Shown: piece by piece, positions 3,310 through 49,443 of the stretch
How positions within the stretch are numbered: position 1 is the stretch's first letter
Layout: each line of letters starts with the position of its first letter
Source of the DNA: Craspedostauros australis
Taxonomy: Eukaryota
Assembly: GCA_030167865.1 (NCBI GenBank)
Contig: JALAGF010004397.1
Location: forward strand, 1 to 49,443
DNA: 49,443 bases
Direction of reading: 5' to 3'
The notes under the pieces: generated by a model
Databases searched by the model: none
The model's input: only the letters and a program-made list of their open reading frames with translations
What the model was told of the DNA's origin: nothing
Program-made: the position numbers and the translations under genes

Positions 3310-4884
3310 GGTTGTTCTATGCAGAGTATAAGCGTTGCTGTTGATTATTGTGCACGACCTAGAGCACCAATACCAATACGGGAATCAGAACTGGTGTCAG
3401 GATGGTGTTGATTATGGAGTTGAGCACGTCGATGCGGTTGGGATGAACCAGGAGTGTGCTCAGCTTTCTCGATCAGCAGACAGCCTTTGTGGATGTGGCA
3501 GATGGCAGCAGCACCTTGCGTGTTGTTTCTCCGCGTGCTGGTAGTCGCTCGCAACGGAATCGGTTGCGCCTTCGTCTTCAGCCAAGCGGTTCCGGACTTC
3601 TTCTTGCACCGATCTCTCTCTCTCTCTCTGCTCAACGCCCTCTTTCTTCAAACCGACACTTGGTGGGATGTCTGGTGCAGATCGCACTATTGTAATGTGA
3701 TATAAGAGGAATGTAACTGCAACGGTGTTGGCAGGGGCTCTCGTGTCGAATGGCAAGCAAGGTTGTTGCTGATCTGGATCCAAGTACAGAGTGGTTGCCG
3801 AGCAGAGCGTCAAAGTGGAATGTGAGACGTTGTACCTGCAAGAGCGGCCCTTGTGTTGGCGCAACTGTCGTTGTGAAGTGAGACGCAGGTGCAGAGACTC
3901 CTGTTTTTGCTTCGGTTTTGTGCTGCTTCTCGCGACCAAAGGCACGATCATCACACACGCAATGTGTCCACCTTGTCGAATGAGCGTGGGTTTTGTGCCA
4001 CATCGGTAAACAACACACGTCACGATCGAGCACGGGTTCGGACGCACCAATACCATTGTGCTTCATCGCTACGCGGGCAACGCGATGCGCAATGACACCG
4101 CAACTTGCATCTCCGATTGTTTCCGTTTTCTTGAGAAATGTCATTATTGCTCCGCTTCACAGTCGGCATTTATCCGAAGTGTCACTCAACGCAAATAATG
4201 TGAAAACAGGTAGTATTAAAACGACCTTATCATACGAGCAACTATTAAGCGGAAAGTCGAACTTCAATGGTGGGCGAAGAACAGATGTTCTGATTCACAT
4301 AGCACATTCACTACTCCTGCCACCGAACGTAACACGTTCGTCTTTCTCGTGGATCAACATGGAAGCGCCTTCTCACTTTGCGATAACTTCAAGATAACGA
4401 TGCGATGTTGCATTGGTACCAGAATGCCGCAAGCTACAAACGCGAACTTGAGTCAAACACTTAACAACGGCTTATGTCACAAAGGAAGGAGAAAAACGGC
4501 ATTTTGCGGTTCAAGCATCTCGCGAAGCGTTCTGCGGACACAAGTGCACGAATTGGATCATTCTTTTGGGGCACAAAATACTTGCATTCCGACAAGTTCC
4601 TGGAGCCGCATCGATGGAACAGTCCTGATTCATGAATAAATGTATCCCGTATGACACACTACGACATCCTCAACAAACAATTGTAGAGCATGTACTCTAC
4701 GAGCTACTCGATCGCAGGATGATGCTTTGTGCAAGTAATCTCTATCAAATTACGATAGAGACAGGGTTTATCTACATTCGATGGAAGCGCTGTCGTGAGC
4801 ATCCATTCGGAGGTGGATTCTCATGCTCGCAATATGGACGAACGCAGCGCTTCCACCCTTGGGATGTTGGCGCTCATCGTGCCA

Positions 4885-6788
4885 TTATAATGGCACGGCG
4901 ATCTGTTCCATGAACTCATCGAAGATGGCCGACAAGCTTGAACAGGTTGATCGATCCGTCGGTTTAGCGCTGTCCACGACGTCTGTGGCGCAGCTCGTGT
5001 TCAATCCATACTGCTCCTGCTGCGGGCAGTTTGAGGCGCTAGGTGTGCCGTTGCAGTTCCGTGCAACGTTGTCTGTGGGATGGGTATTGATGACGAAGGG
5101 AGCAGAGAAATGAGGCGCAGCGCAGAGCCGAACGGAATACGAGAGGAGAAGAATGGTTGAGGATGTGTGAGATCTGTGGACAACGACAGTGCATTGCAAG
5201 CAACTCTCCTTCAGCACGCACGACGCGGCTTGCATGCGGCAGATCATGGTCGAGCAGAGTGGAGTGGAGGAGAGCCGCGTACTTACTCTGCTGTGCAGGT
5301 TGTGGTGCTTGTGTAGAAAAGGGCAGTGGATGTAGAGCTGAATCAAAATACTGTTGCTTTTGTTGTTTTTGCGCATTCACTGCCTCGTCTCCATCTTTCC
5401 ACATATGTGCATTCACATGCCATGGATCGCGAGATAGATCGAATTGCCATTGGTTGCACTCATTGTGATCGCCGATGTTTTCATCGGTCAGCGGCGAGAA
5501 TACCGAGTTGGACTGCTGGGTAATGCAATCCTTGGCTGTGACCGGATGCTCATTGCTATGAATGGAGCTGATGGTGCTCATCCCCAACGAGCTGGACGAT
5601 TCCGTTGAAGCGGAGTGTTGCAGTGGCGCATTCATGGAACTGCCCATGTTGGCGACGTCGGCCATCGGGTTCAAAGTGTCGAAGAACCGTTGCATGGGTG
5701 ATATCGTCGATGCCGTGGCCGTGGATGCGACAACACCATGGGGCGCCAAGGACGGCGGCACCAACGGCTCATTGTTCCAGACCTGCTGCAGGCACTGAAA
5801 CTCGGAGATAGTCGACTCAGGGGAGCTCTCGTCTGCGACTAGCACCGTCTTGAGCTGGGGAGATGACACCACTGCTGGGAACGACAATGGTTGCGTGGGA
5901 AACTTGGCATTCCCAGAGTTTGGGAGGGCCGGAAGAGACGATTGGATCTTGGGCATGATCCGCTGTGGGACGACCTGTGCCGACGCTTTGCTCTGCTTGG
6001 TCTGTTTGGCAAGGGCGGCCTTGGCCTTGCGCAATCCCTTGATCTTCGTGCGCTCCATGTGCCGGCAGAGTTCAGGGTTTCCTCGGATGAAATTCTTGTT
6101 GGTGTCTATTGGTACGGCCGTTGCGTGTTGTATTGGTGCGTACGTCACGGAGAAAGAGAAGAAGGAAGCAGAGATGGTGTATCCAAACGCGTTCATGCCG
6201 TGAGTATCATGAAGACCGACGCATGTATTAATACGTCAATCACAAAATCAGGCGCAAAGGTGAAGCGATTCGCAAGTTGAATCCCTGTGCAACTTATACC
6301 ATGCAACCACGAGGACGAGACCAACCGAAACCAACGATCACAACAGGATGGGCCCATCCAATGAACTTACAGCTTCCTCTTAACGGATTGCGACGTCCTC
6401 CATGCACGCAGCTGAAGCCCCAGATGTTGAGCTGCCGCACGAAGCTCTTGTACTTGGATTGATTGATGGAGTAGCGCGGGAGGATGACGTCGACGAATGC
6501 ATCCCGGTCATGAATCTTGAAGGATTTGCCATCCTCATTCCAGGAGACGATGGAGACGAATTCCTTCTTGCGCGCATCCTCGAGAATCTGATGCAGGACT
6601 CCGGGGAATAGCGTCCTGAAGGCGTTGGTCTTGTCAACGGATGCGGTGTCGCTGGAGCTACTGTTGGTTGCGAACGAGAGGCAGTCGCTCTCGCTGGCCG
6701 AGACTTGGTTGGCAGCAGTAGCTGCAGCGGTAGTGGCAGCAGCAGAGGTCTCACCCATCGTGACACCTGCCGCCCTTGATTCGGACAT
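4885..6788 (-). CDS. Heat-shock transcription factor (HSF-type DNA-binding domain); exons 6788-6371, 6105-5287, 5072-4885; 474 aa
   Basis: HSF domain FPGVLHQILED...IVSWNEDGKSFKIHDRDAFVDVILPRY...KYKSFVRQLNIWGF. Intron 1 (6370-6106, GTAAGT...AATAG, phase 1) restores GSYTNKNFIRGNPELCRHMERTK. Intron 2 (5286-5073, GTAAGT...CACAG, phase 1) joins a terminal exon ending SAIFDEFMEQIAVPL*. Total 1425 nt, in frame. Exon 3 is less certain than exons 1-2. Confidence 0.9.
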
Positions 6789-8758
6789 GCCGTACTGCGC
6801 GTTGACGGTTGCCTCGTTGCTTGATGTTTTGGTTGTTATTGATTCTTGTTGAATGTCTTGTTATATGTCAAGACTGCTGGGATGGATGACCGGGCGAGTG
6901 TGTTTCTAAGTTGTGAAGAAGAGTATTGTGATACAGTTTGTTGTGGATGCGCTCGCAAGTCCTCCGCGTTGATGAGAAATGCAAGAGCGGATTGTGGGGT
7001 ATTGGGTGGTTCTATCCAGACGGCAGTGCGGAAAGGCAGCCGAGTATGACGCTGATGCGGTTGGCGTCGGTATTATGGTTGCCTGCTGGGCAGAGGTGTT
7101 GCAACAACGAGATGGTTGTTGCTTGTAGAACACGTATAATACATGCGAGTAAACGTGCCAATGCGCTTATGCCAGGCTGTCAACTCCTTCGTTGCTGAGC
7201 ACAGGCGAATTCGTATTTTGGGTTGGACGTGGTCGTGAGTGTGGGCGGGACAGTGTTGGGTGATGTGTTTACTGGTGTAGGTTGGTCCATCCATCCGTCC
7301 ATCCGTCCAACCATCCATCGATCGGGTGTTGTTGTTGCTGTTGCTGTTGCTGTTGCTGCTGTGTCGTATGGTACCATACATACGAGTATGCAGAGTGTTC
7401 TATTCTCTAGCGAGAGAGAGAGAGAGAGTATGGACTTCCGTTGGATGATGATGGATGCTGCCGTGGCTTGTGATGTATGGCAGAGCTCTTGCATCAGTGG
7501 ATGCCAAGTAATTGAATCCAAGCCAAGACGGCGCGATGTGGTGGTGCTGATTGTTGACCACTGATTGAGTGAAGAAGAGATGTGTTCAACAATTGGCACG
7601 TTGCTGGTGGTGGATGAAAAGAGTTGCGGAGCAGCGAAGCGGCCAGCTGCGGAACGCAATCGGCCCCGCTTTCTTTGAGCCGTGAGGAGAGAACGTCCTG
7701 GCAATGTCGAACCAGCAGCGCGCTGCGACAGATGGGACTGTGCGGGTGCCTTTCTCTTTCGTGGAGACCACGAAGGGCTTATTGTACTACTACTAAGTCG
7801 TACTCTCGCAGTGCTGATGACAGGAGTTTCAAACAGCTGTCGAGCATCGTGCCTCCGGATACAGGTGGTTTCGTTGATGATTTCATTGTTGGTTTGCACT
7901 GGAGGGTGACATGTTTACTGGTGTAAAATGGGGAAGCGCCAAAGAAACGCCCAACAGAGCGTGGCATTGGATGGAAACGTGAACTGGTGCGTTTGGTAAT
8001 GATTCTGACGTCAGACAGTTGCGACATTCGACCTCGTGTTCCATGCCACTGCCCCTGAGAGGTAGATGACGTGGGACGTGTGCCCTTCCAGGTCACGAAA
8101 ACGGTTTGCGCAACACAAACATCAGCCGAGATGATTATTGTGCGCTTTGTCTGTGTCACTTTGTTGAAGGCAGATGCACATCGGTATACATGACATGCAT
8201 CTCCTGGTGCCCACTTAATGGGGTGACATCTTTGCTTCTGTACACTGAAACTCACGTCATCTTTGTGAATGTTCGACGAATTGTACCTGTTCCGGAAACA
8301 CAGACAATCGTTTTACGCACGCATGACGTTTGCTGACGCATGTGTTGCTCCTTCGCCTTGATTACAGGACTGATGCATGGTACTTCCTTAGGTTTAATTG
8401 AAGATGGGTGTTTGACTCGATGGACCATTTCTGTTCGGATTGAAGATTGGATCGCGGATTGTACTCACCAGACCTTGTTTCGGCCAATGAGAACGGTGCA
8501 TGGCCGATCTGATTCTCACGTGTTGTTTGTGCCGAGTGCGTGTCATGTCGGTGTTGTCCGATCGCCGACCACCGATGGCGCGCTGATTGTCGTGTTGTTT
8601 GTGCTGGTTCGACCCACTCGCGGCAACAAGACACAACGGAAGATGGGATGGCATCACATCAAGAGGGCGCATCCACACCCATCAACACACATCCACACGT
8701 ATGGACTGTGATCTGGCTTGTATCTGAATCTTCAGACCCTCCGGATCAACTCCGGGCC

Positions 8759-8826
8759 AATCCCATTCAATTCAATCCAATTCAATCCAATTCGAACCAA
8801 TCTACTCTGCTCTACTCTGCTCTGCT
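8759..8826. repeat. Compound pentanucleotide repeats (AATTC/AATCC)n and (CTCTA/CTCTG)n upstream of SQD2
   Basis: caattcaatccaattcaatccaattc followed by ctactctgctctactctgctctgct. Confidence 0.7.
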
Positions 8827-9034
8827 GGAATCGTTGAGAGAGAACCCTGCCATTCCGCAAGTACTGATACTCCATTCCTCCCATCGACCCTATTTGCAGA
8901 TATAGGTGCCGATCTTTCTGCTTCTGCTTCTGTTCCTGCTTCTAATTCCACTTCGAACACTCCGCAGCTACGAGCACGTACTCTAGATCGTTCTAATAGC
9001 TCGGACAGGAAGCAAGGACCCACATCGAACCACC

Positions 9035-10977
9035 ATGGGCCGCGTTACGCGCTGCGATGCATCGGATGGTGCTGCGATGGCCATGTCCATCATGTCGACG
9101 GCCTTCGTTGTCATGCTTGCCATCGCATCGTCGCCCACCTGCGATGCATTCGAAACCGCGGGACGGGCGGCCTTCAACTCTCCCCTCTTCCGCAAGCAAC
9201 CATCGGCATCGGCGCTATTCTCGACGGCCAGCGACAAAGCGCCGAAGCTGCGAATCATGCCACCGCGCAAGGTCGTGCTCATGGTCGAACCGACTCCCTT
9301 CACGCATGTCAGCGGCTACGCCAACCGCTTCAACGAGATGCTCAAATTCATGAAGAAGGCGGAGGATAGCTTCAGCGTCTTGACGGTGGACAGCATGACG
9401 CCAGCCAAAGACCTACCCAACGAAGTCTTCGGCTATCCCATCCAGCACACCCTGGGCTTCACCTTTCCTCTCTACAACCAGATCAGCCTCACGTTGGATG
9501 TGCCGGAATTGAAGGGCGCCACCATGTTGGAACGCAATCGGCCGGAATTGATCCATGTCAGCAGTCCGTAAGTTGGTTGGGATGCACGCATTCTTTCGTA
9601 CTCTTTCCAGGGAGGCTCTCCAGAGTGTCTCTCTAGAGAGTCTTCCAGAGAGACAACAGGAATGGTATCTTGCATGGTGCATGTCACATCTTGTATATTG
9701 GAGAGAATGGGTGTTGGCATTGTCATTGGTGTTGGTGTTGATGTTGATGTTGGCAGGAGATGATATTTGAGTGCAATGCTCTGCTCTGCTCTACTTTGCT
9801 CTGTTTTGCTCTGTTCTCACTGGAAAGAGACAGACAGACACACAGAGAGAGAGAGAGAGAGAGAGAGTACTTACAATGTGCCATGTACTATCGAGAGATG
9901 GCGGTGGTGATTGTGCATTGATCCAACCAAATATCTGACCCTTTTCGCCTCGCTCTACCCTCCTCGATTCGATCGAACCAACCAATTCTCCTACACTCTA
10001 TATGCAGTGGGTTCATCGTGTACCCGGCATTGCTGTACGCCCGCGCCTTCCAAATCCCCATCATCATGAGCTACCACACCCACCTGCCATCGTACGCTAA
10101 AAACTACCTCTCCTTCCTGCCGTTCATGGAGCAGTTCGCTTGGTTCCTCCTCCGCGTGGCCCACAAACGCGCCGATCTCACCGTCGTCACGAGCCCGCAG
10201 ATGAAGGCCGAGCTCGAGGCCAACGGCATCCCGCGCGTCGACGTCTGGCGCAAGGGTATCGACACGGAACGCTTCAACCCGACCTTCCGCTCCGCAGACA
10301 TGCGCAACCAGATGACGGACAACAACCCCGACGACTTCCTCCTCATCTACGTGGGACGCCTCGGCGGAGAGAAGAGGCTCAAGGACATCCGGCCCATGCT
10401 CGAGAAGATTCCCAACGCGCGCCTCTGCATCGTCGGCAAGGGACCCCAGATGAAGGAGCTGCAGGAGTACTTCAAGGACACCAAAACCAAGTTCATGGGA
10501 CAGATGTCGGGTGACGCTCTGTCGCAGGTGTTCGCCTCGGCCGACGTCTTCTGCATGCCCAGCGATTCCGAGACGTTGGGCTTCGTGGTGCTGGAGAGCA
10601 TGGCCAGCGGCGTCCCCGTCGTGGGTGCCAACGCCGGCGGTATCCCCAGCATCATCAATGACGGCACGGACGGATTCCTGGTGGAGCCCGGTGACACGGA
10701 CGGCTTCGTGCAGCGGCTGAACCAGCTGCAGGATGACGAGTTCCGCGATCAGATGGGAAAGAACGCGCGCGCGGAGGCCGAGAAATGGGGCTGGGAGGCG
10801 GCGACGGCGATGCTGCGCAACGTGCAGTACGAGAAGGCCATCCTCAACGCGCAATCCAGGATAAGCAGCGGGATGGGACGGCCCGGCACGACGCACTTTT
10901 GGCGTTGCATCGGATGGAAGTTCCATCGGCTGTGGCTGCGGCTGACCGGTCAGTGGAAGAAGGATTGGAAGAACTGA
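9035..10977 (+). CDS. SQD2: Sulfoquinovosyltransferase (sulfolipid SQDG synthase, GT4 family), plastid-targeted; exons 9035-9567 and 10008-10977; 500 aa
   Basis: SQD2-like motifs VEPTPFTHVSGYANRF, LIHVSSPGF (across intron 9568-10007, GTAAGT...TGCAG, phase 2), MSYHTHLPSY, DVWRKGIDTERFNP, YVGRLGGEK, and GT4 signature MPSDSETLGFVVLESMASGVPVV. The N-terminal hydrophobic signal peptide ends CDA|F, an ASAFAP-like cleavage typical of complex-plastid import. The true start could be a slightly downstream Met. Confidence 0.93.
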
Positions 10978-11336
10978 GGCAGCAAGCAGCAATGAATGGT
11001 GTACCATCCATATCTTTGCCGTTTGAAGTGTTCGCCGAAGTGTCTGCAGTGAGTGCATCAGATTGCTGCGCAGTGTGCGAAGCAATGCACGGAATCGTAT
11101 TATACGAGTAAGCGAAGTTTAGAGATTTACAGTTAATTTCGGACTTCACTTTCGTTGTGCATTGCGTACTGTGCATTGCGTACTGCGTATGGTGTGGTAT
11201 GATGCCTTCCTACTTCATGGCGCACGTCCCATACGAGTACTCCATTGACCATTCAATGATCATTCAATGGCAGCCAGAGCAGTAGTCGTATCATCATCAT
11301 CAGCAGCAGTAGCAGCAGCATCGTGACTAATGATTT

Positions 11337-18435: not shown

Positions 18436-20265
18436 TCAAGATGGATACAATCCCGTGGGGTGCGTGCCATCGTTCTGTTGGATGCTCTCCAGCAAAGCGA
18501 GGATTTGGTCAGACGTTGATTGGGTGGGATGAGAACGCGTTGCCCGTTCATTGCGGGATCGGACGAATGATCGTTGCAGTTGCTGATGCAAGTGAATGGG
18601 AGATTGCGAAGCAAACTGCATGGGCAAGTGCGATGATGATTGCACCTGCACCTGCGATGATGATTGAAGGGATACTTGCAATGACGGCTGAGCGTGCATT
18701 CGTGGCTGTTGTTGTTGCTGCTGTGGTTGCGCTTGAAGCAACAGCGATTGGACTTGCTGGGCGAGAGGATGATCCCTGGGCATACCGACGTTGCTTGGCA
18801 TCTTGTTGTTGACAGCGCTGTGCAGGAGCGCATCGAGCAAGGCGTTGTGTTGAGCATTGACTTGCTGCAGAGCCCCTTCCACGAGCAGTCTGCGTGCTGA
18901 CTGCTCTTCCAAATGGCGCCGCTCGTCTGCCCGATGTATTGCGTGGAGCCGTTCCAGGACGAGGGAGACGTGCGGGTCCACCAGAGGTCCAGCCCCCGCC
19001 ACGGAGGGTTGCAAGGATGCTTGTGTGGCGGCTGCTAGAGACTGCACCGGGGCCAGGTTGGCTCCCATCTGAAGATGCGCGACAGGAGCGGATTTGAGAT
19101 CGAGCAGTGATCGTCGCTGGTCAATACGTCCAAGGAACATGGGAGAAGTGACAGCAGCGTTGATTGGCCCTGGATGCAGCAAGTTCTTTGACCTCGACAT
19201 TGCGCCTGCTGCCTGACGTGCATCGAAGGGCTTCACTACGCCCATGCTGATGCCCAGGCCCATGCTCTTGTCGTGGTGCCGGTGGTAGGCCTCGCCCTCG
19301 AGCTCTCGGGTGTGTACGCGGGGATGAGTAGCACGATTGTCATTTCGGGGCGCGCACATTTTTCGTGCAGCAGCCATGATGGTGGAGTGCACAGCCATGT
19401 CTCCAGTGGCATGTGGTACGCCACCACTGCCTTGGCCACCGTGGCTGGCGTTGGCACTATCTGCGTCATCTTCTTGCTGTTCGTCACCTCCAGCATACCG
19501 AAGAGCCAGCTTCACCTTTTGATGGATGGTGACAGGATCTTGTACGACCTCGAAGGGGCCACGGATGGTGGTCCTGCCCTTTGCCTTGTTGTCGATGGTG
19601 GTTGCTGCCGCCATGTCGGCGTCGCCGCCCTTGGGCGCATCGCTTGTTTTCGCCAAGGCTGAGGTTTGCCCTGATGGTGGCAATGTCGTTCCCATTGCCG
19701 TGGCTGGTACCGCTGCCGTAGGTGTTGCCGTTGCCCCAGGCGATGGCGACTTGACGCGTCTGAGGAAGCGAGTCTTCTTTCTGTGAACCAGAGCAAGGGC
19801 CTTTCGCACGATGTTTCTTCGTTCGGACCGAGTCGCGGCGTTCTTGTAGCCCTCGGCGTACCTGCGCATGAGTTTGCGGAAGACCTTGTTGCCAGGGTTT
19901 TCGTTGGGGCCCGTTCCCCTGCCAAACAGGACGTCGTTGGGTTGGATCGTGAACACAATACTCCTGCTTTGTGGTTGGGAGACGGCCTCCTCAGTGTTTG
20001 TGATTGCACCAGTCGGAGCACTGTTGGGGTTGGTCTTCATCTGCGCCACCCCTGACTCTCTTGCGACAACAGGTGGAACTGAGCTCTTGGATTGAACGAT
20101 CATGGCGCTCTCGGTTGCGCGCAGTTGAGATCGGCTGTGGTCGAGACTGACCTTGGGACGGGGATGGTGCTTCTGTTGATGTTGCTCTGTGAGGATTGAA
20201 GGTGATGGCAAGGCAGGTTGGGTTTGCGCTTGTCGTCGATACTCACTGTCAGTGTTGGAAGGCAT
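18436..20265 (-). CDS. DUF6824-type domain protein (diatom-expanded, putative regulator), 609 aa
   Basis: Motif NDVLFGRGTGPNENPGNKVFRKLM...YKNA...RFLRR...FEVVQD...KVKLALR matches the DVLxGRG...GN..FR...RFL...KVxQALR pattern. Gln-rich C-terminus. Confidence 0.8.
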   Translation of the reverse strand: MPSNTDSEYRRQAQTQPALPSPSILTEQHQQKHHPRPKVSLDHSRSQLRATESAMIVQSKSSVPPVVARESGVAQMKTNPNSAPTGAITNTEEAVSQPQSRSIVFTIQPNDVLFGRGTGPNENPGNKVFRKLMRRYAEGYKNAATRSERRNIVRKALALVHRKKTRFLRRVKSPSPGATATPTAAVPATAMGTTLPPSGQTSALAKTSDAPKGGDADMAAATTIDNKAKGRTTIRGPFEVVQDPVTIHQKVKLALRYAGGDEQQEDDADSANASHGGQGSGGVPHATGDMAVHSTIMAAARKMCAPRNDNRATHPRVHTRELEGEAYHRHHDKSMGLGISMGVVKPFDARQAAGAMSRSKNLLHPGPINAAVTSPMFLGRIDQRRSLLDLKSAPVAHLQMGANLAPVQSLAAATQASLQPSVAGAGPLVDPHVSLVLERLHAIHRADERRHLEEQSARRLLVEGALQQVNAQHNALLDALLHSAVNNKMPSNVGMPRDHPLAQQVQSLLLQAQPQQQQQQPRMHAQPSLQVSLQSSSQVQVQSSSHLPMQFASQSPIHLHQQLQRSFVRSRNERATRSHPTQSTSDQILALLESIQQNDGTHPTGLYPS

Positions 20266-22645
20266 GTTTATGAGGCACCCGTGTCAGGCAAGAGAAAGAA
20301 CTTGGTGTGAACGTATTTTATTTGTTGTGGGTGTGCAAGTATGGTCCTCTCTCGCAGCGAAGTCCCCCTCCTTCGTACTGCCAGAAGTGTTGCAAGATGA
20401 TCGATCACACGCGCAGTATCAGCCAGCGTCAGTCGATGCAAATAGCATGTGAGGATCCGTGTTTGTTCTTGGTGTCAATCGAATCGGCTTGATTTGGTTG
20501 CTTCGATTTGTTTGGGAAGAATGACGCGGAATGAATTGTGCTGGTAGTAGCGCGCAGCATTCTTCCCCATTCTGCCCCAAAAACCCATGGCCACTATTCA
20601 CGCTCTTACCTTCGTAGAATGTCGCCTCTCGATGTCTGTTGTCGCGTCTCCTTTTGCGGAAGGCAATTTGCCCCTGTTGTTATCGTTTCAGTCACACAAA
20701 TTATGCCGTGGTGGTGCTCTTTGTTGGGTTGTTGTTGGTTGGGACGTCAGAAGCGCTTTTTATGGGAACACACGGGGATGTCCCTTTCCTGGGCGTCCAA
20801 AGCTGTTCTTCGCTCCACGCGTGGTCTGGTTCAATGAGCCAACAATGTGGTTCCCGAACCAGCCACAACGGACGCAAGGCAGTGTGGAATCTCTGCACCA
20901 ATGCTTCCATCAGTCAAGGAAGAGAGAGAGAGAGAGAGAGAGGAGGCCTCATGAGGAGAAGTAGCGAGAAGCGGAAGCGGGCGTCTCTGGACGTACGCGA
21001 GGAGGAAGCAGGACAAAGGCGAGTGAGCGCACGACACTCGCACCTCTCAAGAAATGCTGTCCTGACGACTGTCGCGGTGAATGTGATTCGTCGATTGTCC
21101 CTCTATTGCCCATTCGACTTCAAGTTGCGCTTAGCTCCGTCCCCCAATCGCCAATGACCGACTGCACGAACCATGGAGAGAAGTTGCAGCGTGAAATGAA
21201 TTGCATTTCTTTGTGACCAGCGCGAACACGACCAACAACCGAAGCACCCGCCAGCAATAGGTCGCGGCCAAGTAACAACAAAAAGCCACCCACGCACACC
21301 CGAAGCCCAACCAGCCAGTTTTTATCACTGTCGAATGTACGCATTTGTCTGGAGGAGGTAGAATGCACGTTACGAAATGACAGACAATGACAAACAATGA
21401 CGCGGCAGTGCAAGTTGCAGCCGAAGGGAACAAGGCTTTAAGCCCCTCCTCACACGGAATTGTCCAGCAATGCGCGATCGCCATACATGGAGGTACGACT
21501 ATTGGCGGAGCAGCGCATCCGATCGTGTGGTGGTGAATGCATGAGAAGGAACTGCTCTGCCTGGGAGGCCGTACCTGCATCACAAGCATTTGCATGTACT
21601 CTTCCAGATGCTCACCGGATTACCGAGGGAATGGCTTGAGCCTCCAACTTCAACGATTCTTCAGTTACAAACCTGACTCTCTGCACCACCGGCTCCGCAG
21701 AAGTTCCAACGAAATGTGCCCCTCTTGCACATACAGACTGCCATCCCTCTCTCTTGCTTTCTCTTTCTCTTTGCACATAGCTGGTTGGGTGGCTGCGCAG
21801 CAGACCTGCGATGCGGCTTGGCCACCAGGACTTCATCCATCCATTTCCCCCTCCAGAGGGAGAGAGAAACGGCGGCCTCTCCACCTCCAGAATTTCTGTT
21901 CTCTGCTCTCTATTTGGAGACTTCTCTGTCCACATTTGTGAGGAGGCGCGGACACAGAGGCGTCAACGTGCAAAGCGCATGAAACTGGAGAACTGCCATC
22001 AAGCAGCAGAGGTTTGCAAACATTTGCACCCTCATGGTACGATACTATGATGCCATATTCGCTGCTGCGTGCGTTGGTACGCTGCGGTTCGAGTACTCTG
22101 GAGTATACTCGTGTGGTACTATCCCGGACAGCTGTCGCTCCAGAATGGTTGACCGCTATTGAGCGCGGAAAAGAAGAGCGTCTCCTCGTGTGATGGTCGC
22201 GCTTTTTGCTTCGCGGCAGCGGCCTCTTTGCCTGGTTTTTGGCGTTTGGGTGGTCCCGCAAACCCAGGTGTGATGCGCCTTGCAAGCCAGTGGTACGTAC
22301 AGGATGAGACGTTCGTTTTGGTTGGAATGTCCTCAAGTTGTTCCGGGCAGTGCCACAAGCGGCTCTCCACCCACGAGCACATTCGAGTTGTTACCAATGA
22401 AGCACCCAGCCGACCACTCGAAGTGTATGAGGTCGGTCTCCAGTAGAAAGTTGTGAGTAAGGTACCATGCATGCGCGTTCTTACTCGCGCATACATATAT
22501 ATATATGGGTGGCATCATGGCTCCCGGTGGTGCTCTCTCTCTCTAATACTCCATGATCCTGTGTTTGTGCGCGATTCACTGAAGCACGTACTATATAGCT
22601 TTCTATACTATAATATTCTATGATAATACATAATATAATAGTATT

Positions 22646-39478: not shown

Positions 39479-40308
39479 TGTTCGAATGCTGCTTCAATGA
39501 GTCCCTCCAGCTGCGAGATCTGGCACGGGTGTGGTGGAGGACGACCTTCAATACGACTATGGTAAAGCGCGGCTATGGTGCACATGCAATTGTTGTGCTT
39601 GTCGCATGTATTGTATTCTACTGCTATTATTATTAGAGTGATGAGACTTCAACACCAACATGAAAGACAAGAGCGCAGAATGAAATGAAATCCAACAACG
39701 TCAACAACCACAACAAATGAACTCACATGATCTCCATCCACCAACAAAACTGCGAAACAAAACTGAAGTACGTGCAACTTCTGCGCAAACAACGGCACCA
39801 GGGAGACCCACAACACCATTCTGCTCGCAGTGCGCACGCGACAACCTCAACGCGCGTCACAATTCTGCCGCCGAAGAACAAGCAGGAAAGCATTGGACAT
39901 TCCGACTTGCGAAACACGACTTAACTTCCGCGAAGCAAAGATTCTGATCGTGCTGGATGAACGAACAGTCGCCTGAATCGACAAAAATGTAGTTCGTGAT
40001 TCACCAGAAATGGAGTCTTGTGTCGAGGACCAACCATTGAACGATGGCGCCAGTTCCGTCTACCTTCGTCATCTGTCCATTCCCAACCAACAACCACGCA
40101 ACAACACAATCACTTTCTTGTGGATGTGGAGACCATCATCCATTGATGCACCAGACCGCAAGCAGCCCTGCATACGGTGGACCTCCGAGTGCAAGAAGAG
40201 CCAGGCCAGCATTATAGTTACGGAGAGTGTGGACAACAACCTCGATCTCTTCACTGTTCCATTCTCACGCGCTGAGTTGACGTTGCAGATCCACGATCGT
40301 GTCTCACG

Positions 40309-43300
40309 ATGGCATTCGCTGAAGCCGGCTCTGCGAGATCCAAGAAGAAGAAGAAGAACCGCAGCAAGGGTCGCAGCAAGAATCGCAAGAAGAACAATGC
40401 TGAGGCCGACAGCAACGCCAATAGAAACAGCATTGCCAACACCAACGGCAAGTCCAAACTCAGATTCCTGGGAGAGGAGGCTGGAGGTTACGAACACTTG
40501 GATGAAGGCGATGATGCCAGCGTCATTCACATGGACAGCGACGATGATGATGATGTGATGCACGATGATGATGTCGACATTGGCTTTCGCAAGCATCATT
40601 ACTCCAACAACAGCAGCAGCAACAACAGTGGCAACAGCAGGAAGAAAAGGAGGCAGCGATCCAAGGAGGAGGCCATCTACGGTGTCTTCATGGGTGGTGG
40701 TGACAATGATGACAATCGCAATCATGCCAACAGCACCAACAGCAGCAATGTCATGCCAACAGCGCCCCTGTTCGTCAAGTCCAAGACGGCCATCAAGGAG
40801 GAGGCTAACCAAGCAGCAAAGAGCGATATTGCGGGCATGTTCCAGAAGGCATCCAAGCCGGATGCGGGTGACAAATCGGCAGCTTCCGCAATGACCTTCC
40901 ACAAGGCGAGCAAATCGACGGATGAAGAAAAGAAGGAAGGTGACGCCACCACCAATGGCAACAATGACAACAATGACAATGAACAGAAGAAAGTGGAGGA
41001 GGAGGAAGAGGATCGCAAGACGGAAGCGGAGCAAAAGGCGGCGGACGATCGCTTCCTCTCCCTCCTCAACAAGGCCACGGCCCGGAGCAAATCCAAGGCG
41101 TCGGCCAAGCTTCGGGAGATCCCACCTACGCCGATGCTTTCCACCGATGCGCGCGCGTCCGCAGCAACGGCTCCTGCCATGCCGCCAACCTCCTTCGGTC
41201 AGCAGCCCAAACAGCCGGCCTTCGTGTTGTCCAAAACCAAGAACAAGCCACCCAATCCAAACCTGGGAAAGTGGGAGAAGCATACGAAGGGCATTGGGAT
41301 GAAGCTCCTGTCCAAGATGGGATACGGCGGCTCGGGAGGTTTGGGTTCCGACAGGAGAGCCAGAAGGAAGCTGCAGAAGCTCAAGGAGGAGCAAGCCAAG
41401 GGTCCGCAAACGGACGCAGCAGCAACTGCGGATGCCAACAACAAGGACGCCAAACCAGAAGGCGAGGGCAAGACGGAGCTGCAGCAGCAGATCGAAGCCC
41501 GGTTGCAAGCGCAGAAGGCGGCGGCCGAAGCCGCAGCAACCCAGTCGGCGGCACCGACCATCATCGAGGTCAAGAAGGGAATTTCGCGTCCCATCGAAGT
41601 CGTCGTGCGTCCGGCCAACATGGGATTGGGCTTCGGAGACTTCAAGGAGGCATCCCAGCTCAAGTCCAATCGGAAGATCGAAGCGGAGGTGCGTGGCATG
41701 GAGGGCGAACTGGACGACAACAAAAAGAAGAAGCAGCAGCAAAAGAAAAAGAAACGAAAGCGTCGAACCCAGCGGGGTGACGATCATGATGATTCCGATC
41801 ATGTCGACATGGATAGCGATACTGATGACGAAGACGGTGATGATGAATTCGACGAGGACGGCGACGAGGGGATCGAAAGTTCGGCCTACATGAAGGATGT
41901 GGACGACATGATGGCACAGCAGCAGTGGAAAAAGCGCCAGCGGAAGAACCCCAACAAGAAGGCCAAGAAGCGAAAGGCCAAGATCGTTTCCATCACCGAC
42001 GGTTGGGGAAGGAGTGCCGGCGAGGGCGCCAACGATGCCGATGGGGCCGTCGTCGTCGACATGACGGGAAGCAAGCAGTTCGGAGACGCTGCGTCGCGGG
42101 AGCCCGTCCCGCTGGGTTCCGAAGTGCTGCACAATATCTCCTTCCTGATGAGCACGTACGAGACCAAGATGAGCTCGTCGCATCACTTCATCCAATCCAG
42201 CGACCGCAAGATCGAACACTTGCAAGGCGAGGTGGAGGAGATGAAGCACAGGCTGGATGAGATCAAGGACAGACGATCCAAACTCACGCATATCACGGAC
42301 ACGATCGATGCCATCGAGCAACTCCTGGAGCAGTCCTCGCCCAACCGTGGTGTTGGCACCAGCGACGCGGCCTTGGAACGGAAGGCCCGATCCATGGTTT
42401 GCGAATTGGCATCCAAGCTGTCGCCGAAGGAACGTCAGGAGCTGAATTTCTGGCAGATGCTGGCGCCGTCATTGCTCAGTCCCGTCATCGAACGCAAGCT
42501 GCGACGTTGGAAGCCACTTACGGACAACTTGGAGACCAGCCGCAAGCTCATCCATTCCATCATGGCATTCGCATCGACGGATGCCGCAGCCGAAGGCGAG
42601 ATGGCCAGCTTGGAGAGCGTCGTGTTCGGCATGGCCGTGTTCCAGAATCAGCTCATCCCCATGGTGCAGAAGGAACTTGATTCCTACAAGTGGGTGCCGC
42701 ACCAGCAGGTCGACCACGTCGTGGATCTGTACGAATTGATCTACAAGTCATCGAAAGAGTACAGAACCCGGCAAAAGCACCAACGGCGTACAAACAACAG
42801 AAAAATACAGCAGCGACAAGGCGGTGCCGCAGGTGACGGTGCCGCAAGCGATGATGAGGTTCAGGTCTTCCCCATGGGCGATGTCAGCGAGGACGAAGAT
42901 CACGATGAACATGACATGGATGTCGACGGCGGCAAAGGAGGTTTGAAGATGGGTCATGAGTCATCCACGCGGTTGCCGGATCTGGCCAAGGTGGTTCGGG
43001 ATCAGCTCCTGCACAAGACGATCTTCTCCAAGCTGCTGTCCGCCCTGGGGAGTTGGCGACCGAGCTTCGATGGTGCGGCCTCCTACGGCAGCAGCAAGAC
43101 CAACCACCGTCTGGATCTCTGGATCCTGCCGTGGTTGATCCATCTCAACCCGCACGGCGAGGTTCCGATGCTCTTGCTCGAATGCAAACCCAAGATCCGA
43201 TCCGCCTTGGTCGGTCTGCAGCGACATCACTCCAGCAGACGAGCTGCGCCAGGCAGCAGCGGTGGGAGTGACGACCAACAACGCAAGCAGGCGGGCGAAT

Positions 43301-43920
43301 TCTTGAAATCGTACACTGAGATGCTGCGGCCATGGTCCAAGATGATCTCCTCCAAGACCTTACAGGAGTGGACTACACCCATTGCTCTGCAGCAGCTCAA
43401 GCTCTATTGTTCCAGGACACCGGTGTCCCTGCCAACCGACGACGACGACGGCAAACAACAGGACTGGTCAGCACTGCAGATGACGTTCGAATGGCATTCA
43501 ATCGGCCTCATATCGAACGTCGACTTCGTGACTCTGATCGAAACGGAGCTGTTGACCAACTGGTCCATGGCTATGTTCGAAACGCTTTCCGAGATCGACA
43601 ACGTTGAGGAGGGCAGAACACTGGCCGCGAAGAGCTACTCCACCTGGAAGTCTCGGATCCTTTGCAATCCCTTGGCACGGCAGCAGAAGGTCTCCAAGAT
43701 CAAGACCGCCCAATCCATCGAGATGCTGCGACAGGATCCCGTCATCTGCCGCATCTTCTACTCCGCGCTGCGCATGATCCAAGCACTGGCGGATGGTAAT
43801 GGGAAGAAACAACAGAAGTCGAGTGCGGGCATGTTGCTCGAAGACGCGTTGCATCCGAAGCAAACCACCTTCTCGGAAGCCGTAACCAAGAGGATTGAAC
43901 GCAGCCGGTTGGTGAAATAG
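40309..43920 (+). CDS. TFIP11: Tuftelin-interacting protein 11 / Ntr1 (Spp382) homologue, G-patch spliceosome-disassembly factor, 1203 aa
   Basis: TIP_N-like SKEEAIYGVF. G-patch WEKHTKGIGMKLLSKMGYGGSGGLG...GISRPIEVVVRPANMGLGF. EVLHNISFL plus coiled coil, then GCFC-like motifs KLRRWKPL, KLLSALGSWRP, LDLWILPWL, MLRPWSKM and SYSTWKS. Confidence 0.92.
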   Translation: MAFAEAGSARSKKKKKNRSKGRSKNRKKNNAEADSNANRNSIANTNGKSKLRFLGEEAGGYEHLDEGDDASVIHMDSDDDDDVMHDDDVDIGFRKHHYSNNSSSNNSGNSRKKRRQRSKEEAIYGVFMGGGDNDDNRNHANSTNSSNVMPTAPLFVKSKTAIKEEANQAAKSDIAGMFQKASKPDAGDKSAASAMTFHKASKSTDEEKKEGDATTNGNNDNNDNEQKKVEEEEEDRKTEAEQKAADDRFLSLLNKATARSKSKASAKLREIPPTPMLSTDARASAATAPAMPPTSFGQQPKQPAFVLSKTKNKPPNPNLGKWEKHTKGIGMKLLSKMGYGGSGGLGSDRRARRKLQKLKEEQAKGPQTDAAATADANNKDAKPEGEGKTELQQQIEARLQAQKAAAEAAATQSAAPTIIEVKKGISRPIEVVVRPANMGLGFGDFKEASQLKSNRKIEAEVRGMEGELDDNKKKKQQQKKKKRKRRTQRGDDHDDSDHVDMDSDTDDEDGDDEFDEDGDEGIESSAYMKDVDDMMAQQQWKKRQRKNPNKKAKKRKAKIVSITDGWGRSAGEGANDADGAVVVDMTGSKQFGDAASREPVPLGSEVLHNISFLMSTYETKMSSSHHFIQSSDRKIEHLQGEVEEMKHRLDEIKDRRSKLTHITDTIDAIEQLLEQSSPNRGVGTSDAALERKARSMVCELASKLSPKERQELNFWQMLAPSLLSPVIERKLRRWKPLTDNLETSRKLIHSIMAFASTDAAAEGEMASLESVVFGMAVFQNQLIPMVQKELDSYKWVPHQQVDHVVDLYELIYKSSKEYRTRQKHQRRTNNRKIQQRQGGAAGDGAASDDEVQVFPMGDVSEDEDHDEHDMDVDGGKGGLKMGHESSTRLPDLAKVVRDQLLHKTIFSKLLSALGSWRPSFDGAASYGSSKTNHRLDLWILPWLIHLNPHGEVPMLLLECKPKIRSALVGLQRHHSSRRAAPGSSGGSDDQQRKQAGEFLKSYTEMLRPWSKMISSKTLQEWTTPIALQQLKLYCSRTPVSLPTDDDDGKQQDWSALQMTFEWHSIGLISNVDFVTLIETELLTNWSMAMFETLSEIDNVEEGRTLAAKSYSTWKSRILCNPLARQQKVSKIKTAQSIEMLRQDPVICRIFYSALRMIQALADGNGKKQQKSSAGMLLEDALHPKQTTFSEAVTKRIERSRLVK

Positions 43921-46399
43921 AAAATCAGACAGCACTCCCAGCCAAGTGCACAATAGCCTATTGCAGCACCTGCATTACAACTGGAGATGCTTTTGTGCCT
44001 GTCATGTCGGTCGCACAGCAGCACGGTACCACCCTGTTGTTGCAAGTTAAGATACGATGGATGTAATGTTTGCGGACGTGAATGTTGGATGATAGCGTCC
44101 ACAATGTATCCTGGCGGCAGGGCAACTTGATGCCCGCGAATTGGCGAATGATCGACATGACCATGATCACGCATGGTTGACAAATGTTTGCATCGCCCAA
44201 GAGGTGCGATTGCACCAGGCCCCAAAGCAGAGCCGAGACATGTACGCAGAGTCGTACGAGTATGTATGACATCCGCGAGGACGGTAGCACAGCACAATCC
44301 TGTGCAATGATGGAAAGCATTAGGGTCGCCCTTATTCGTACTCGTAGTTGAAGATCTTCTACGGTTCTGGCTGGCCGCGACATCGTCGATCCGGCAACGC
44401 ACAGGGGAACCCGCACTCTCTAGAGAGCTTGTGCAGGTATTATTGATCGTACTTGCAGATCGTAGAGAGGCAAGAGTGAGTCGACGGTTTCAGACGAAAT
44501 CTAAACGGCAGCCCGGAGTGCTGATGGGGTGCTGAATTCCCCCCAAAAGAAGACACCAACTCGAGGGATCGATGCGGCGCCTCGCGACGATTCCGACCAG
44601 CCGCCGTTACCGCCGGACAGTCGACGCGCAATGCCGCGATGCGCTTCTGTATACATGCCGCCTTGTGCTCGCCTTGGCGAATGTTATCACTGAGGAGCGC
44701 AGCACAGTGATACGTGTATGTATCCACAAAGTGATGGAGGACTGCTGGGGATGGAACAAATACTCGCCATCAACCGCAACCACCACCACCATCGCCACTT
44801 GGCAAATCTCTGGCCCGCATCAAACAGGAGGATCATACAATCTCATACAATCTGGTGCCTTTCCTTTCCTCCTGCCTTTTTGCTTCGTTGATTGTGATTG
44901 CGCCGAACTCATCATCCCGTGTTCTGGATCGTGGATCTTTGGCCCCGCCGATGACACGTGAGCCTTACCAGGAGCTGCGTTTTACGCGTCCGCATCAAGG
45001 AAAGTGCGGAAAGTTCCGGATACGCAACTCTCTCTCTCTTTGGTCGTTGACGCCATAATGCGTTAGTTTGCGCCAGTTCGCCAAATTTCACGCGATGTCT
45101 CTGTGATCGTTACGAGTACCATGGCGACGCCGCACTCGTTGATGGCACGAGCAGGAGCGACGGGATGATGTTTGCGATGCACCGCCATGGCGTTGTGTTG
45201 CGCTGCTTCCGTTTGGCCATGGTCGCCTCCGCTGTCACCATCCGATTGACGATTCTTCATTCTGTGCTCCGTGGAGATCGTGCATTGTGAAGGTTGACAT
45301 AGCCGCTGCGAGCAGATGATATTTTTCTCTGATCATTCTCCTCTCGCGAGAGACGTGGCGCGTCTGTTGGTTTGGAACAATATCACAATGCCCATAGCGT
45401 CCAGACGGGGCATGTGGTTTGCTCTTGTGGCATCTTGTGTCACCGCGGGTGGAAGGCTGTCAGAGCAACACGGCAACAGCAACGGCAACAGCTGAATGAA
45501 ACAGCAACATCAACCGCAAGGAAAGCGTCTGTCCCGTTGGTTTTACCATTGCCATTTCTCCATCCCCAGAGTGACGAAGACGGGCGAAAGCTGCTTTGCG
45601 TATCTGGTGATGGCGGCAGAGTGCGAGAAGGTGCGCGAATTGTCGGCAAGAGTGAACCATTAGAGGATTCTCGCATTCGGATTATTTTACCCCAAGTACG
45701 TGTCACATTGACATTTTGGGCCAATTTGGGCCAGAACTGCACAGGACTCATCCGTGACAAATTCCTGCTTAGATTGGTTCGACTCCTGTAGCGTTCGCAA
45801 TAAAATCGAGGAATGCGAACAAGCAAACTTGATGGAGGGGTTCGATTCGCTTTTCCATCGTGACGGCTGGCGACCCCAGCCAATCAAAGGGATTTAAATA
45901 TATCGCCAATGCGAACAAGCCATCCCATTGAAGGGCGAATTGAGGGGAGTTTTGAAGATTTATCCCGAGCTTTGTTGCCCTGGGGTTCTCATTTGGAACC
46001 GTGTGACGCAATCGATCTGTTCCCTTCATGGAACGATTCTCGTTGCTGGCGCTGAGACAGGCAACAATTCAGTGGTGGGACTGCGTGGTTGGTTTCGCAC
46101 AAGGATTTGGGCAACTTCCACAATTTCTAAGAAACCACGGTATGGACAAATAAACTGTACTTATTTCCTTGCGGTATCTGCGTACGAGTACCTCGAAGAG
46201 AGAAATATCATTGCCGTATCTCCTCCGACTTTCCAACCAATACGTTTATGGTATCATTGCGATGGGACTATCAACTGTTTCGCGTTGTTGTGGCTCATCA
46301 CAAGTACCTCCAAAAGAATTCCGATTCATGTGGAAAATTGACAAAAATAGTTTTTGCAAAATTCCAACAACGAAACAAGGACGGAAGTGTTCCTTTGAT

Positions 46400-47210
46400 G
46401 TGAACCATGACGCAGCGCCATCAACAATGCAAACATCAACACTAGGATTGGCATTGACAAAGACAATGATATCAACTCTGCTATTGAGTCCAACTGTGCA
46501 CAGGCTTGTGCTATCGAATAGAATCAACCCATGCACTGTATAGTGCTTGGAACGACGACGTCCTGGACACATTTAACCAAGATTTCAATGATACACATGC
46601 AAGGGCGCACATCCAACAATACAGACCCCACCTGCTTCATTGGAGGTGATGGCAACAGCAAGATTGCCAGTTGTATGCATGTTGGCAAGTTCCGCTCACA
46701 GAAGCCTATGATCGTGGAAGATGGTATTGGTTGATAGTTGTTTGTTTGCTATTTCATTACGTTGGCACTCCAATCCTCTTGGTGTCTGTTTGTTCTCTTG
46801 CTCGATGTTCTCGGTGCTTCAATCTGTTTTGTAGATTTGGTCGTCCAACTATGAGTTGGTGTGCAAGATGCTCTCTCGCTGCTCTTTGTATTCTCTCTCT
46901 CTCTGTCTCAGCATCATGCACTTCGTGCTACACCATGCTCCATGTTCGATGCGTACTCCGCATTTGACACTCTGTTCATTCAGTACTGGCTCCTACTCCA
47001 TGAGTACTTACCATTTGAAGTTCACCTTTAGTATCCATGATCTTGATGCCCTTTGGTCATCGGATCTTTGCCTCCTGCTCTGACTTGGAAACAGATGTCG
47101 ACGTGGTGACATGATGACATCCTGTCAACATCAGTAGGCATCCTTCTGCTCTCCAGATGTCACGTTCCATTGGTGATGCAGCAGTCTGCCAGATGATATC
47201 GTCATCTGAG
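46400..47210. other. CpG-poor sequence adjacent to the copia relic, possibly TE-derived
   Basis: TpG/CpA-rich by eye, no intact ORF, strand-biased T/G-rich segment around 46730-46910. No LTR partner or PBS identified. Confidence 0.2.
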
Positions 47211-47489
47211 GTTTAGTTGGGAAGTACCTCGAGATTCTCTTGGTACCATACATTTCTCTTGATGGATGGACGGACGATATTTCCAATTCTCTCAGAAATC
47301 GTCGATTGCAAATTTCCTCCAGAAATTCTGCTCATTTTTGTGTGTTCCATTTCTGCTGTAATTCTGACGAATCACAGCATACTATTGACACGAATGTAGT
47401 TATACCGTCCAAGTGCGTATGAGGGAATAACGGGTGAACGATGCACATATACACGTACATCTCGACATATGCTCACATGTACATCTCGA

Positions 47490-49443
47490 CACAAGGAGGG
47501 AAGGCGTACGTTGACGACTTCCAAGACAGTGCTTCAAAGAGCAATGATGCCAGGTTTGCAAGCACCAGCAACTTCAAGGGAACATGCCATAACTGTGGAG
47601 TGTATTGGCATCGATCTGCAGATTGTCCTGAACGGAAGAAAACGAATCACAAGAAGAATGGTAACAATAGCAACATCAAAAAGAACGGAAACCGAAACAA
47701 CAAAGGCACAGGAAATGGATTCAATAGGAAATGCAACTACTGCGGCATCTTTGGGCATTGTGAGGCGGAGTGCCAAAAGAAGAAGTTCAATGAGAAGAAG
47801 AAGGCTGACGAGCAGACCAACACAGCGAAGGAAAGACACGACAAGAGCGGCCACGAGATGGTGCTCTCAGCAAGAGACACGCCGCTCTGCATGGAGGTGT
47901 CCGACGACATCGAGGACTCATTCTTTGACAACTTCCAACACTTCAAGAACGACGACGAAGTATGCGACGGCGAGGTCATACCAGAATGGCTCAGCGAGGA
48001 GCCAATCATCCACGAGGTGTATTGGAACGTGGTGTGTATCGATGATGTGTTCTGTTCTACTTTTGGGGATTATGAGCCTAACGCTCCTACTTGTGTTTGT
48101 TCCTGCTGCTGTTGTTGTCACGACCACTGCCGTGTGTTTGTTTTGTTGTTCTCGTTCTTGTCGTCACCGTCGTTCCTTGCTGTCGTTCCATTCGACTCAT
48201 TTGACTTCATTCCCGTCGCCTACGCTCCAATAAGGTGGACCCACGCCGTGAAGTCAGCTACGAGTGCTGCTTCAACGTGAACGACATCATTCATCCACCC
48301 AGCGACGGAGCCGAGATGGGAACAGAGGCCATTGATATCAAGATCGAAGCAGCCACGAACGCAGACGATGCCGGCGCCAACAAGAACGGCGCGGATCGTG
48401 ACAACGAAGACGTCTCCGGCGACGAGACGAACAGCGGCGAGGCGCCGCCTCCTCCAGCAGCGGGGAACAATAGAACAGGCATCGTTGACAAAGACAGCAG
48501 CAACAAATCGGTAGAGGAAGACCGGTTCAATCCAAACAAACAGGTCATCTACCCAATGGACATCCAATTCCCACCAGTTGCAGATCCCAGAAGATCGGAC
48601 GACATCTATTGACATGACACAATCCCATACCCAACAGTGACAGCAGAGACAGTGCAATGACAACTCATCCATGATGCAGTGATGGCAGCAGGGATGCATC
48701 TATTCCCAGGGATCGCCAATGGAGGATTACTACACGTATGGACAAGCATGATGGGCACCATACTGTCCGAGAACTTCAAATCAATCGAGGAGATCCTCGC
48801 CAACTCAGTCATCATCAACCGTTTGTTGGAAGGAGTGAATGAGGAGCCCATTCCAGAGACGGAGTTGCACTACATTCTTGGAGGGTGCGTGCAGGTGCTC
48901 CTGCGCGAGCGACCACAAGTCACACCCTACAATCTGGTGACAGGAACCCACCAAGAAGACACATGGCCAGCAGCGGTCACAGAGCCAAACTACTATGGCA
49001 TGGATGATGAAGACGGGAATCCCTACAACGAAGATGGAGTCCATGAAGACGACATGGCAGCGGCTGCCATGAAACAGCTCCATGAGCTGAGCACCAAGTA
49101 CAAGGACAAGGTCATCAAGGACACCTGGCTTGCTGACAGCGGAGCTTTGTGTCACATCGTGAATTCAGACGCTGCCCTCTTCAACATGCAGCACAACAAG
49201 TCCTTCATACAAGTGGGAGACAGCACAAAGCTGGACTCTCCCAAGATTGGGTCCATTTGCTTGAAGGTCAAGCAATGAGACAACACATGCCACATCATCC
49301 GACTTGACGATGTGAAGTACACACCCAAGATGTGGGTGAACCATTTCTCTACGAACAAGGCGCTGTACAACGGCTACCAGATTGGTAACGACGCCATTGT
49401 GATGGACATCATCAATGGATCCAGAAAGAAGATCATCTTCAAT
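47490..49443 (+). mobile_element. Degenerate Ty1/copia LTR retrotransposon (gag C-terminus plus protease region), 5'-truncated, continuing past the window end
   Basis: Two CX2CX4HX4C zinc knuckles (CHNCGVYWHRSADC 47585-47626; CNYCGIFGHCEAEC 47732-47773). Copia protease motif WLADSGALCHIV (from 49126), followed by IQVGDS...IGSICL...LDDVKYTPKMWVNHFS. In-frame TGA stops at 48610, 48658 and 49276. Confidence 0.88.
48032..48237 (+). other. ~200-bp insert in the copia polyprotein: candidate intron (48032-48234, GT...AG) or solo-LTR/small TE with GGTG direct repeats
   Basis: Abrupt switch to T-rich non-coding composition. GGTG at 48031-48034 and 48234-48237. Deleting 203 nt gives ...TGG AAC GTG GTG GAC CCA..., joining the zinc-knuckle frame to the frame carrying the protease motif. 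Confidence 0.7.

Follow-up and report, generated by a model that had tools for sequence, protein, structure and literature searches.

Nested solo LTR of a second Ty1/copia family as the probable source of an intron-like insert in a copia retrotransposon of Craspedostauros australis

The intron-like segment between the gag and protease regions of a copia retrotransposon in Craspedostauros australis (assembly GCA_030167865.1) is almost certainly an ordinary solo long terminal repeat (LTR) of a second Ty1/copia family, nested in a copia host that was probably already defective. The window analyzed comprises all 49,443 nucleotides of contig JALAGF010004397.1, and the insert occupies positions 48020-48232, on the minus strand, antisense to the host. 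The assignment is carried by the identity of the insert to paired LTRs elsewhere in the genome, a target-site duplication (TSD), empty sites in sister copies, the orientation of the insert and the broken state of the host. A first-pass annotation made from the sequence alone had left three options, namely a splice switch, an intron-generating mobile element, and an ordinary solo LTR with coincidental GT and AG dinucleotides; it is the third that the data favor, since the segment corresponds to the LTR of a different retroelement and the sister copies lack it. Solo LTRs are commonly found nested in decayed retroelements, and the insert as found is of little significance in itself.

Extent of the insert and its full-length donor

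The mobile unit is 213 bp long, begins and ends with a short terminal inverted repeat (TATTGG...CCAATA), and is flanked on both sides by a perfect 5-bp TSD, AGGTG. The left TSD copy (48015-48019, plus strand) is original host sequence, contains a GT at 48017, and occurs only once where the sisters have the empty site, while the right copy (48233-48237, plus strand) is the source of the AG (48233-48234) read earlier as a splice acceptor. The boundaries originally described therefore need correction: the insert had been given as 203 nt with an element start at TGTATCG and direct repeats of GGTG or TGGTG/AGGTG, and the unit in fact begins 15 nt further left, at 48020, with AGGTG as the real repeat. 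Four other genomic copies, when aligned to the window, cover the same 48020-48232 span to within two bases. The ends are TA...TA in four of the five LTR copies (TG...TA in C6371, antisense reading), and the insert lacks the canonical TG...CA termini.

Searched against the genome of the same organism (65.9 Mb in 6734 contigs), positions 48030-48240 returned five matches, the window itself and four others (97, 97, 89 and 77% identity), and a 19-nt LTR pattern with two mismatches allowed gave nine, consisting of the same five copies and four sequences that are not full LTRs. The genome comparison proposed in the first-pass annotation thus leads to the paired LTRs of another retroelement, on contigs C1235 and C3432: the insert is 97.2% identical to both, differing by five substitutions and one 1-bp indel. 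The two repeats show no difference from each other across their 212 bp, have GATAC on the outer side of each only, enclose copia features and lie on overlapping contigs; they thus represent the 5' and 3' LTRs of a single young element. On the minus strand of C1235, the LTR copy is followed by GTTTATACGACC and then by a 1674-aa open reading frame (ORF), GTTTAT being the PBS-like motif after the donor 5' LTR; on C3432, the LTR copy is preceded by a reverse transcriptase (RT) ORF (RVT_2, PF07727, E=3.3e-20) and the polypurine tract (PPT) GAAGGGGCG. The sense strand of the insert was fixed by the PPT and the PBS-like motif of this full element. The integrase-like part of the 1674-aa ORF, located upstream of RT, is weak by profile (rve, E=0.1, with no Pfam match above cut-off for the donor integrase), and its atlas neighbours, at 0.93-0.97, are mostly from Bacillariophyta.

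The overlap of the two contigs, 8.3 kb at 100% identity, is made up of a LINE that lies within pol and is accompanied by a duplication of ~15 bp. By coordinates, the donor measures ~7.8 kb when the LINE is left out; with the LINE, it reaches ~16 kb. The donor copia maps to C1235:8350-13700 and C3432:10205-12670 (G000, L029-L032), is split in pol by this LINE, which has long open ORFs, and lies antisense within the 3' part of a DUF6824 gene; the copia insertion and the LINE insertion both look very recent. The remaining two copies are solo LTRs with TSDs of their own (ACTAT for C3803, AAAGC for C6371); the TSD differs at every one of the four insertion sites, and those of the other sites are without AGGT.

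By far the most probable course of events is that a Ty1/copia copy with TA...TA LTR ends integrated antisense into the gag-protease spacer of a defective copia, duplicating the 5 bp AGGTG, and that the inserted element was then reduced to one LTR. The full element presumably came first and probably lost its interior by LTR-LTR recombination, the standard route to solo LTRs.

The broken host copy and its insert-free sisters

The host copy consists of a C-terminal part of gag (47492-48019, plus strand) with two CCHC knuckles (zf-CCHC, E=0.002) and, beyond the insert, of a gag-protease spacer and protease (48238-49443, plus strand) that run past the contig end (Pol_BBD, E=7.7e-6, slightly below cut-off). 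Three in-frame stops interrupt the latter, TGA at 48610-48612 and 48658-48660 before the WLADSGA protease motif and TGA at 49276-49278 after it, the frame itself being in phase with that motif. Adjoining gag lies an 812-bp host-family LTR with TG...CA ends (46680-47491, minus strand; 929 candidates in the genome, best 40 scored) that is inverted relative to gag; in the sister copies C199 and C3207, it is the opposite strand of this LTR that precedes a PBS-like motif and gag. The PBS, the leader and the gag N-terminus, which together span ~1.15 kb in these two sisters, are absent from the window copy. The inverted LTR has no TSD (ATGCA on the left, CAAGG on the right), and its left junction is the same in C6294 and C6144. 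Placement of the missing leader and gag N-terminal segment in inverted form upstream was rejected, as it has no match in the window. An origin of the T-rich tract as inverted host coding sequence was likewise rejected, given that no long inverted repeat was found within 45500-49443 and that the unit occurs elsewhere with TSDs. The PBS-like stretch of the host family, CGTTTATAAACG (L013 and L014, bases 342-353), is a perfect palindrome with GTTTATA in common with that of the donor; no tRNA gene was found in the window.

Sister copies of the host locate the insert as a foreign sequence. Both host flanks occur many times in the genome (184 and 174 candidates, with the best 40 scored for each), and all 16 sister contigs present in both flank listings carry the empty site with 0 extra bases; the 18 sister loci fetched with both flanks, some of them on the same contig, have the empty junction too. 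The first-pass annotation had named presence in sister copies as a check, and the answer is absence from every one of these 16 contigs. In C199, gag and protease are read in a single 1079-aa frame (HEVDP at residue 530, ADSGA at 830; matches to Retrotran_gag_2, zf-CCHC and Pol_BBD), and the host family therefore needs no splice at the insert site.

The two sisters nearest to the window copy are C6294, which shows 29 differences across 1734 flanking bases, and C6144, whose flanks match at 96-98%. Both are insert-free and yet share the TGA codons at 48610 and 48658, from which it follows by parsimony that these stops are probably older than the LTR insertion and that the host would already have been defective at that time. 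C6294 shares window positions 45661-49443 minus the insert, its bases beyond that part, 4077-11271, being without a match to the window. A simple allelic relation was not upheld on this account, and C6294 may be either an allele or a duplicate. The window (at 49443) and C6294 (at base 1) break off at an identical position within the host element, in keeping with an assembly break in a repeat. Window positions 45660-46680 form a repeat of ~1 kb, found at 93-97% in C6294, C6144 (from 46228) and C5165; a 147-aa frame within it has no Pfam match.

Intron-like appearance and alternative readings

The gag-like frame (47438-48280) reads ...EEPIIHEVYWNVV (...HEVYWNVV), continues into a T-rich tract and ends with the stop codon at 48278-48280. 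This is as the first-pass annotation had it, except that the residues YWNV, taken there for gag, are encoded by the insert; the tract is T-rich because an A-rich LTR is read from the opposite strand. The interval singled out as an intron (48032-48234, plus strand) is 203 nt long, begins with GTGTGT, ends with TAAG and contains TTTGAC at 48200-48205, all as described. Its removal had been said to restore the polyprotein exactly; the phase into DPRREVSYECC is indeed regained, but WLADSGA is not reached, the TGA codons at 48610 and 48658 lying in the way. Any deletion of 2 mod 3 restores this phase, because the insert plus one TSD amounts to 218 nt, or 203 + 15. Around the insert, 20 GT..AG pairs restore the phase, and the 203-nt interval, with its donor inside the LTR, is one of them. 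For a null model, the same LTR ends were placed at 47,950 target sites on each strand of the window; 56% of the sites on one strand and 55% on the other then had a phase-restoring pair close to the junctions, a share that falls to 39% when the acceptor has to be YAG. The observed GT/AG fit does not exceed chance: such a pair is to be expected for about half of this LTR's insertions and is therefore not evidence of an intron. The intron look has three sources, the reversed A-rich LTR, four GT dinucleotides at the LTR end and the AG from the TSD, and the insert almost certainly plays no part in Gag or Pol expression.

A further interval, the hypothetical 48017-48234 (plus strand, 218 nt), equals the LTR plus one TSD; it starts from the AG/GT junction within the TSD, which makes its seamless removal possible in sequence. 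AGGT is present in the TSD at 0.55-0.57% of random sites. An unlikely but conceivable extension of the solo LTR reading is accordingly that the same LTR is incidentally spliceable, the spliceosome removing either this interval, with both sites from the TSD, or 48032-48234 from sense transcripts as an accidental, functionless intron. Besides AG/GT in the TSD, such splicing could draw on the donors GTGTAT and GTGTGT, on TTTGAC about 30 nt upstream of the acceptor and on the T-rich interior, and functional introns made of Copia-family solo LTRs are described for Panicum virgatum in the available part of PMC12130899. Against this, the acceptor is AAG rather than YAG, the host's own LTR is inverted, hence no sense promoter is evident, and the spliced RNA would still meet two stops. 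If true, the seamless splice would represent a clean natural intron gain through a TSD at an AG/GT site.

There is only a slender chance that the feature is more general, such that the TA...TA copia clade to which the donor belongs is pre-adapted to intron making, with solo LTRs spliced, seamlessly where the TSD has AGGT, as a low-copy LTR-derived introner in a diatom-like alga. The basis for this would be that, by sequence, the antisense LTR starts with several GT and is T-rich, and that the final TA plus a target G makes TAG.

Very improbable is the stronger claim that this LTR family is itself an introner tolerated in genes, its antisense strand giving the donors and its TA end with the following G giving TAG. 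On the antisense strand, an AG does lie within 4 nt of the LTR end at all four insertion sites (by rough arithmetic ~0.4 per site and 0.03 for four, for a pattern spotted after the fact), the window copy has four GT in its first 20 nt (+10, +13, +15 and +17), and one copy lies antisense in the 3' part of the DUF6824 gene. However, just five LTR copies at four sites were found in the genome; the genic copy is full-length and, together with the LINE nested in it, measures ~16 kb; and no stop-free run in the flanks of the C3803 and C6371 solo copies exceeds 64 codons, although the possibility of short exons makes this a weak test. The TSDs, moreover, differ from site to site, and the pattern AGGTG-TATTGGA has 12 matches in the genome, one of which is this LTR; a CAA[TC]A-AGGTG end within 700 nt occurs in none of nine other loci (10 of the other 11 matches). 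A target preference for AGGTG was rejected on these counts, the window's match being the only one tied to this LTR. The intron-generating element of the first-pass annotation is not supported, the other copies being LTRs with TSDs lacking AGGT. As set out in the available text of Gozashti et al. 2025 (PMC12130899), Copia-derived introners resemble the insert in that a solo LTR has possible splice sites from element and TSD; the insert differs in lying in a dead retroelement instead of a gene and in having few copies.

That the host family uses the insert as a programmed splice switch, with Gag only when it is retained and Gag-Pol when it is spliced, has a negligible probability: the site lies between gag and protease, near that of Arabidopsis Ty1/copia introns (PMC5580714, available portion), but the inserted sequence is the LTR of another family, is missing from 16 of 16 sister contigs while the C199 gag-protease frame is continuous, and sits in a copy with downstream stops and no gag start, so that the switch proposed earlier, being neither family-wide nor placed in an intact host, is refuted. 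The native introns of the coding region in Evade, BARE1 and Drosophila copia, whose splicing yields Gag only according to the available portion of PMC5580714, share with the insert a position near the gag/protease border. In contrast, the insert is a foreign sequence, present once in the host family and situated in a broken element, and it is not a regulatory intron of this type.

Relation to known copia elements and the TA...TA clade

The nested solo LTR and its parent agree in most respects with Ty1/copia (Pseudoviridae) elements. The insert has the paired-LTR match, 5-bp TSD, terminal inverted repeat and sister empty sites of a Ty1/copia solo LTR, and the parent has a PPT before the 3' LTR and a copia-type RT, with a weak integrase-like region upstream of RT; the insert differs in its ends, TA...TA instead of TG...CA. 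In the diatom CoDi elements, which are Ty1/copia elements (Maumus et al. 2009), LTRs of 153-844 bp, element lengths of 5182-8062 bp, a nested insertion with a 5-bp duplication, tandem CCHC knuckles in CoDi6.2-6.5 and the lack of TG/CA in 3 of 26 families are reported in the available sections of PMC2806351, which refer the termini of CoDi3.2, CoDi4.2 and CoDi4.3 to a supplementary table. The donor is alike in its copia RT, and its 212-bp LTR and ~7.8 kb length fall inside these ranges, while the host element has tandem CCHC knuckles as in CoDi6.2-6.5. Set beside the published description in this way, CoDi membership is likely; of 1219 RT relatives, the 120 that were listed include none with a CoDi name. 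Possible hints of a diatom host are the DUF6824 genes and the Bacillariophyta neighbours of the donor's integrase-like region. The available parts of PMC3601003 and PMC3488318 contain no specific information about the primers of CoDi elements or about transposons that duplicate AGGT.

TATA-ended Copia LTRs are known in plants, and the Lotus TATA elements have short LTRs with a mean of 229 bp (PMC9804982, available sections). The insert resembles this class of non-TGCA Copia LTRs in that its TATA ends form an inverted repeat; the class in that source is from land plants, whereas the clade here comprises several families in a diatom-like alga. In 14 loci related to the donor 3' region (14 fetched of 37 other matches), GAAGGGGCG is followed by TATTGG in nine and by TAA in two, with no call in three. 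The LTR end (CAATA) plus GTTTAT has 17 matches as a pattern and the control pattern 0, and a TATTGGA start lies 162-273 bp upstream in 11 of the 15 fetched loci of the former. On C4526, an element is bounded by two LTRs of 170 bp that do not differ from each other, and its TSD is AGAAA. Judged from these sequences, TA...TA ends are a trait of several copia families in the genome, and LTR finders demanding TG...CA would overlook such a young multi-family clade. No TA...TA clade of diatoms was found described in the titles and abstract openings of the literature on non-canonical LTR ends in diatoms, a scope that does not establish absence from print. The copia families with TATTGG...CAATA LTRs of 162-273 bp, GAAGGGGCG and GTTTAT are represented by loci L045-L058 and L079-L093. 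At one of them, L084 (C6244:10372), the LTR has a purine tract before it and GTTTAT after it, which suggests tandem elements with one LTR in common.

Elsewhere in the window, a 615-aa frame (18436-20283, minus strand) carries a DUF6824 domain, from a family abundant in diatoms. A 1214-aa frame (40276-43920, plus strand) contains TIP_N, G-patch and GCFC domains and presumably represents a TFIP11/Ntr1-like splicing factor gene.
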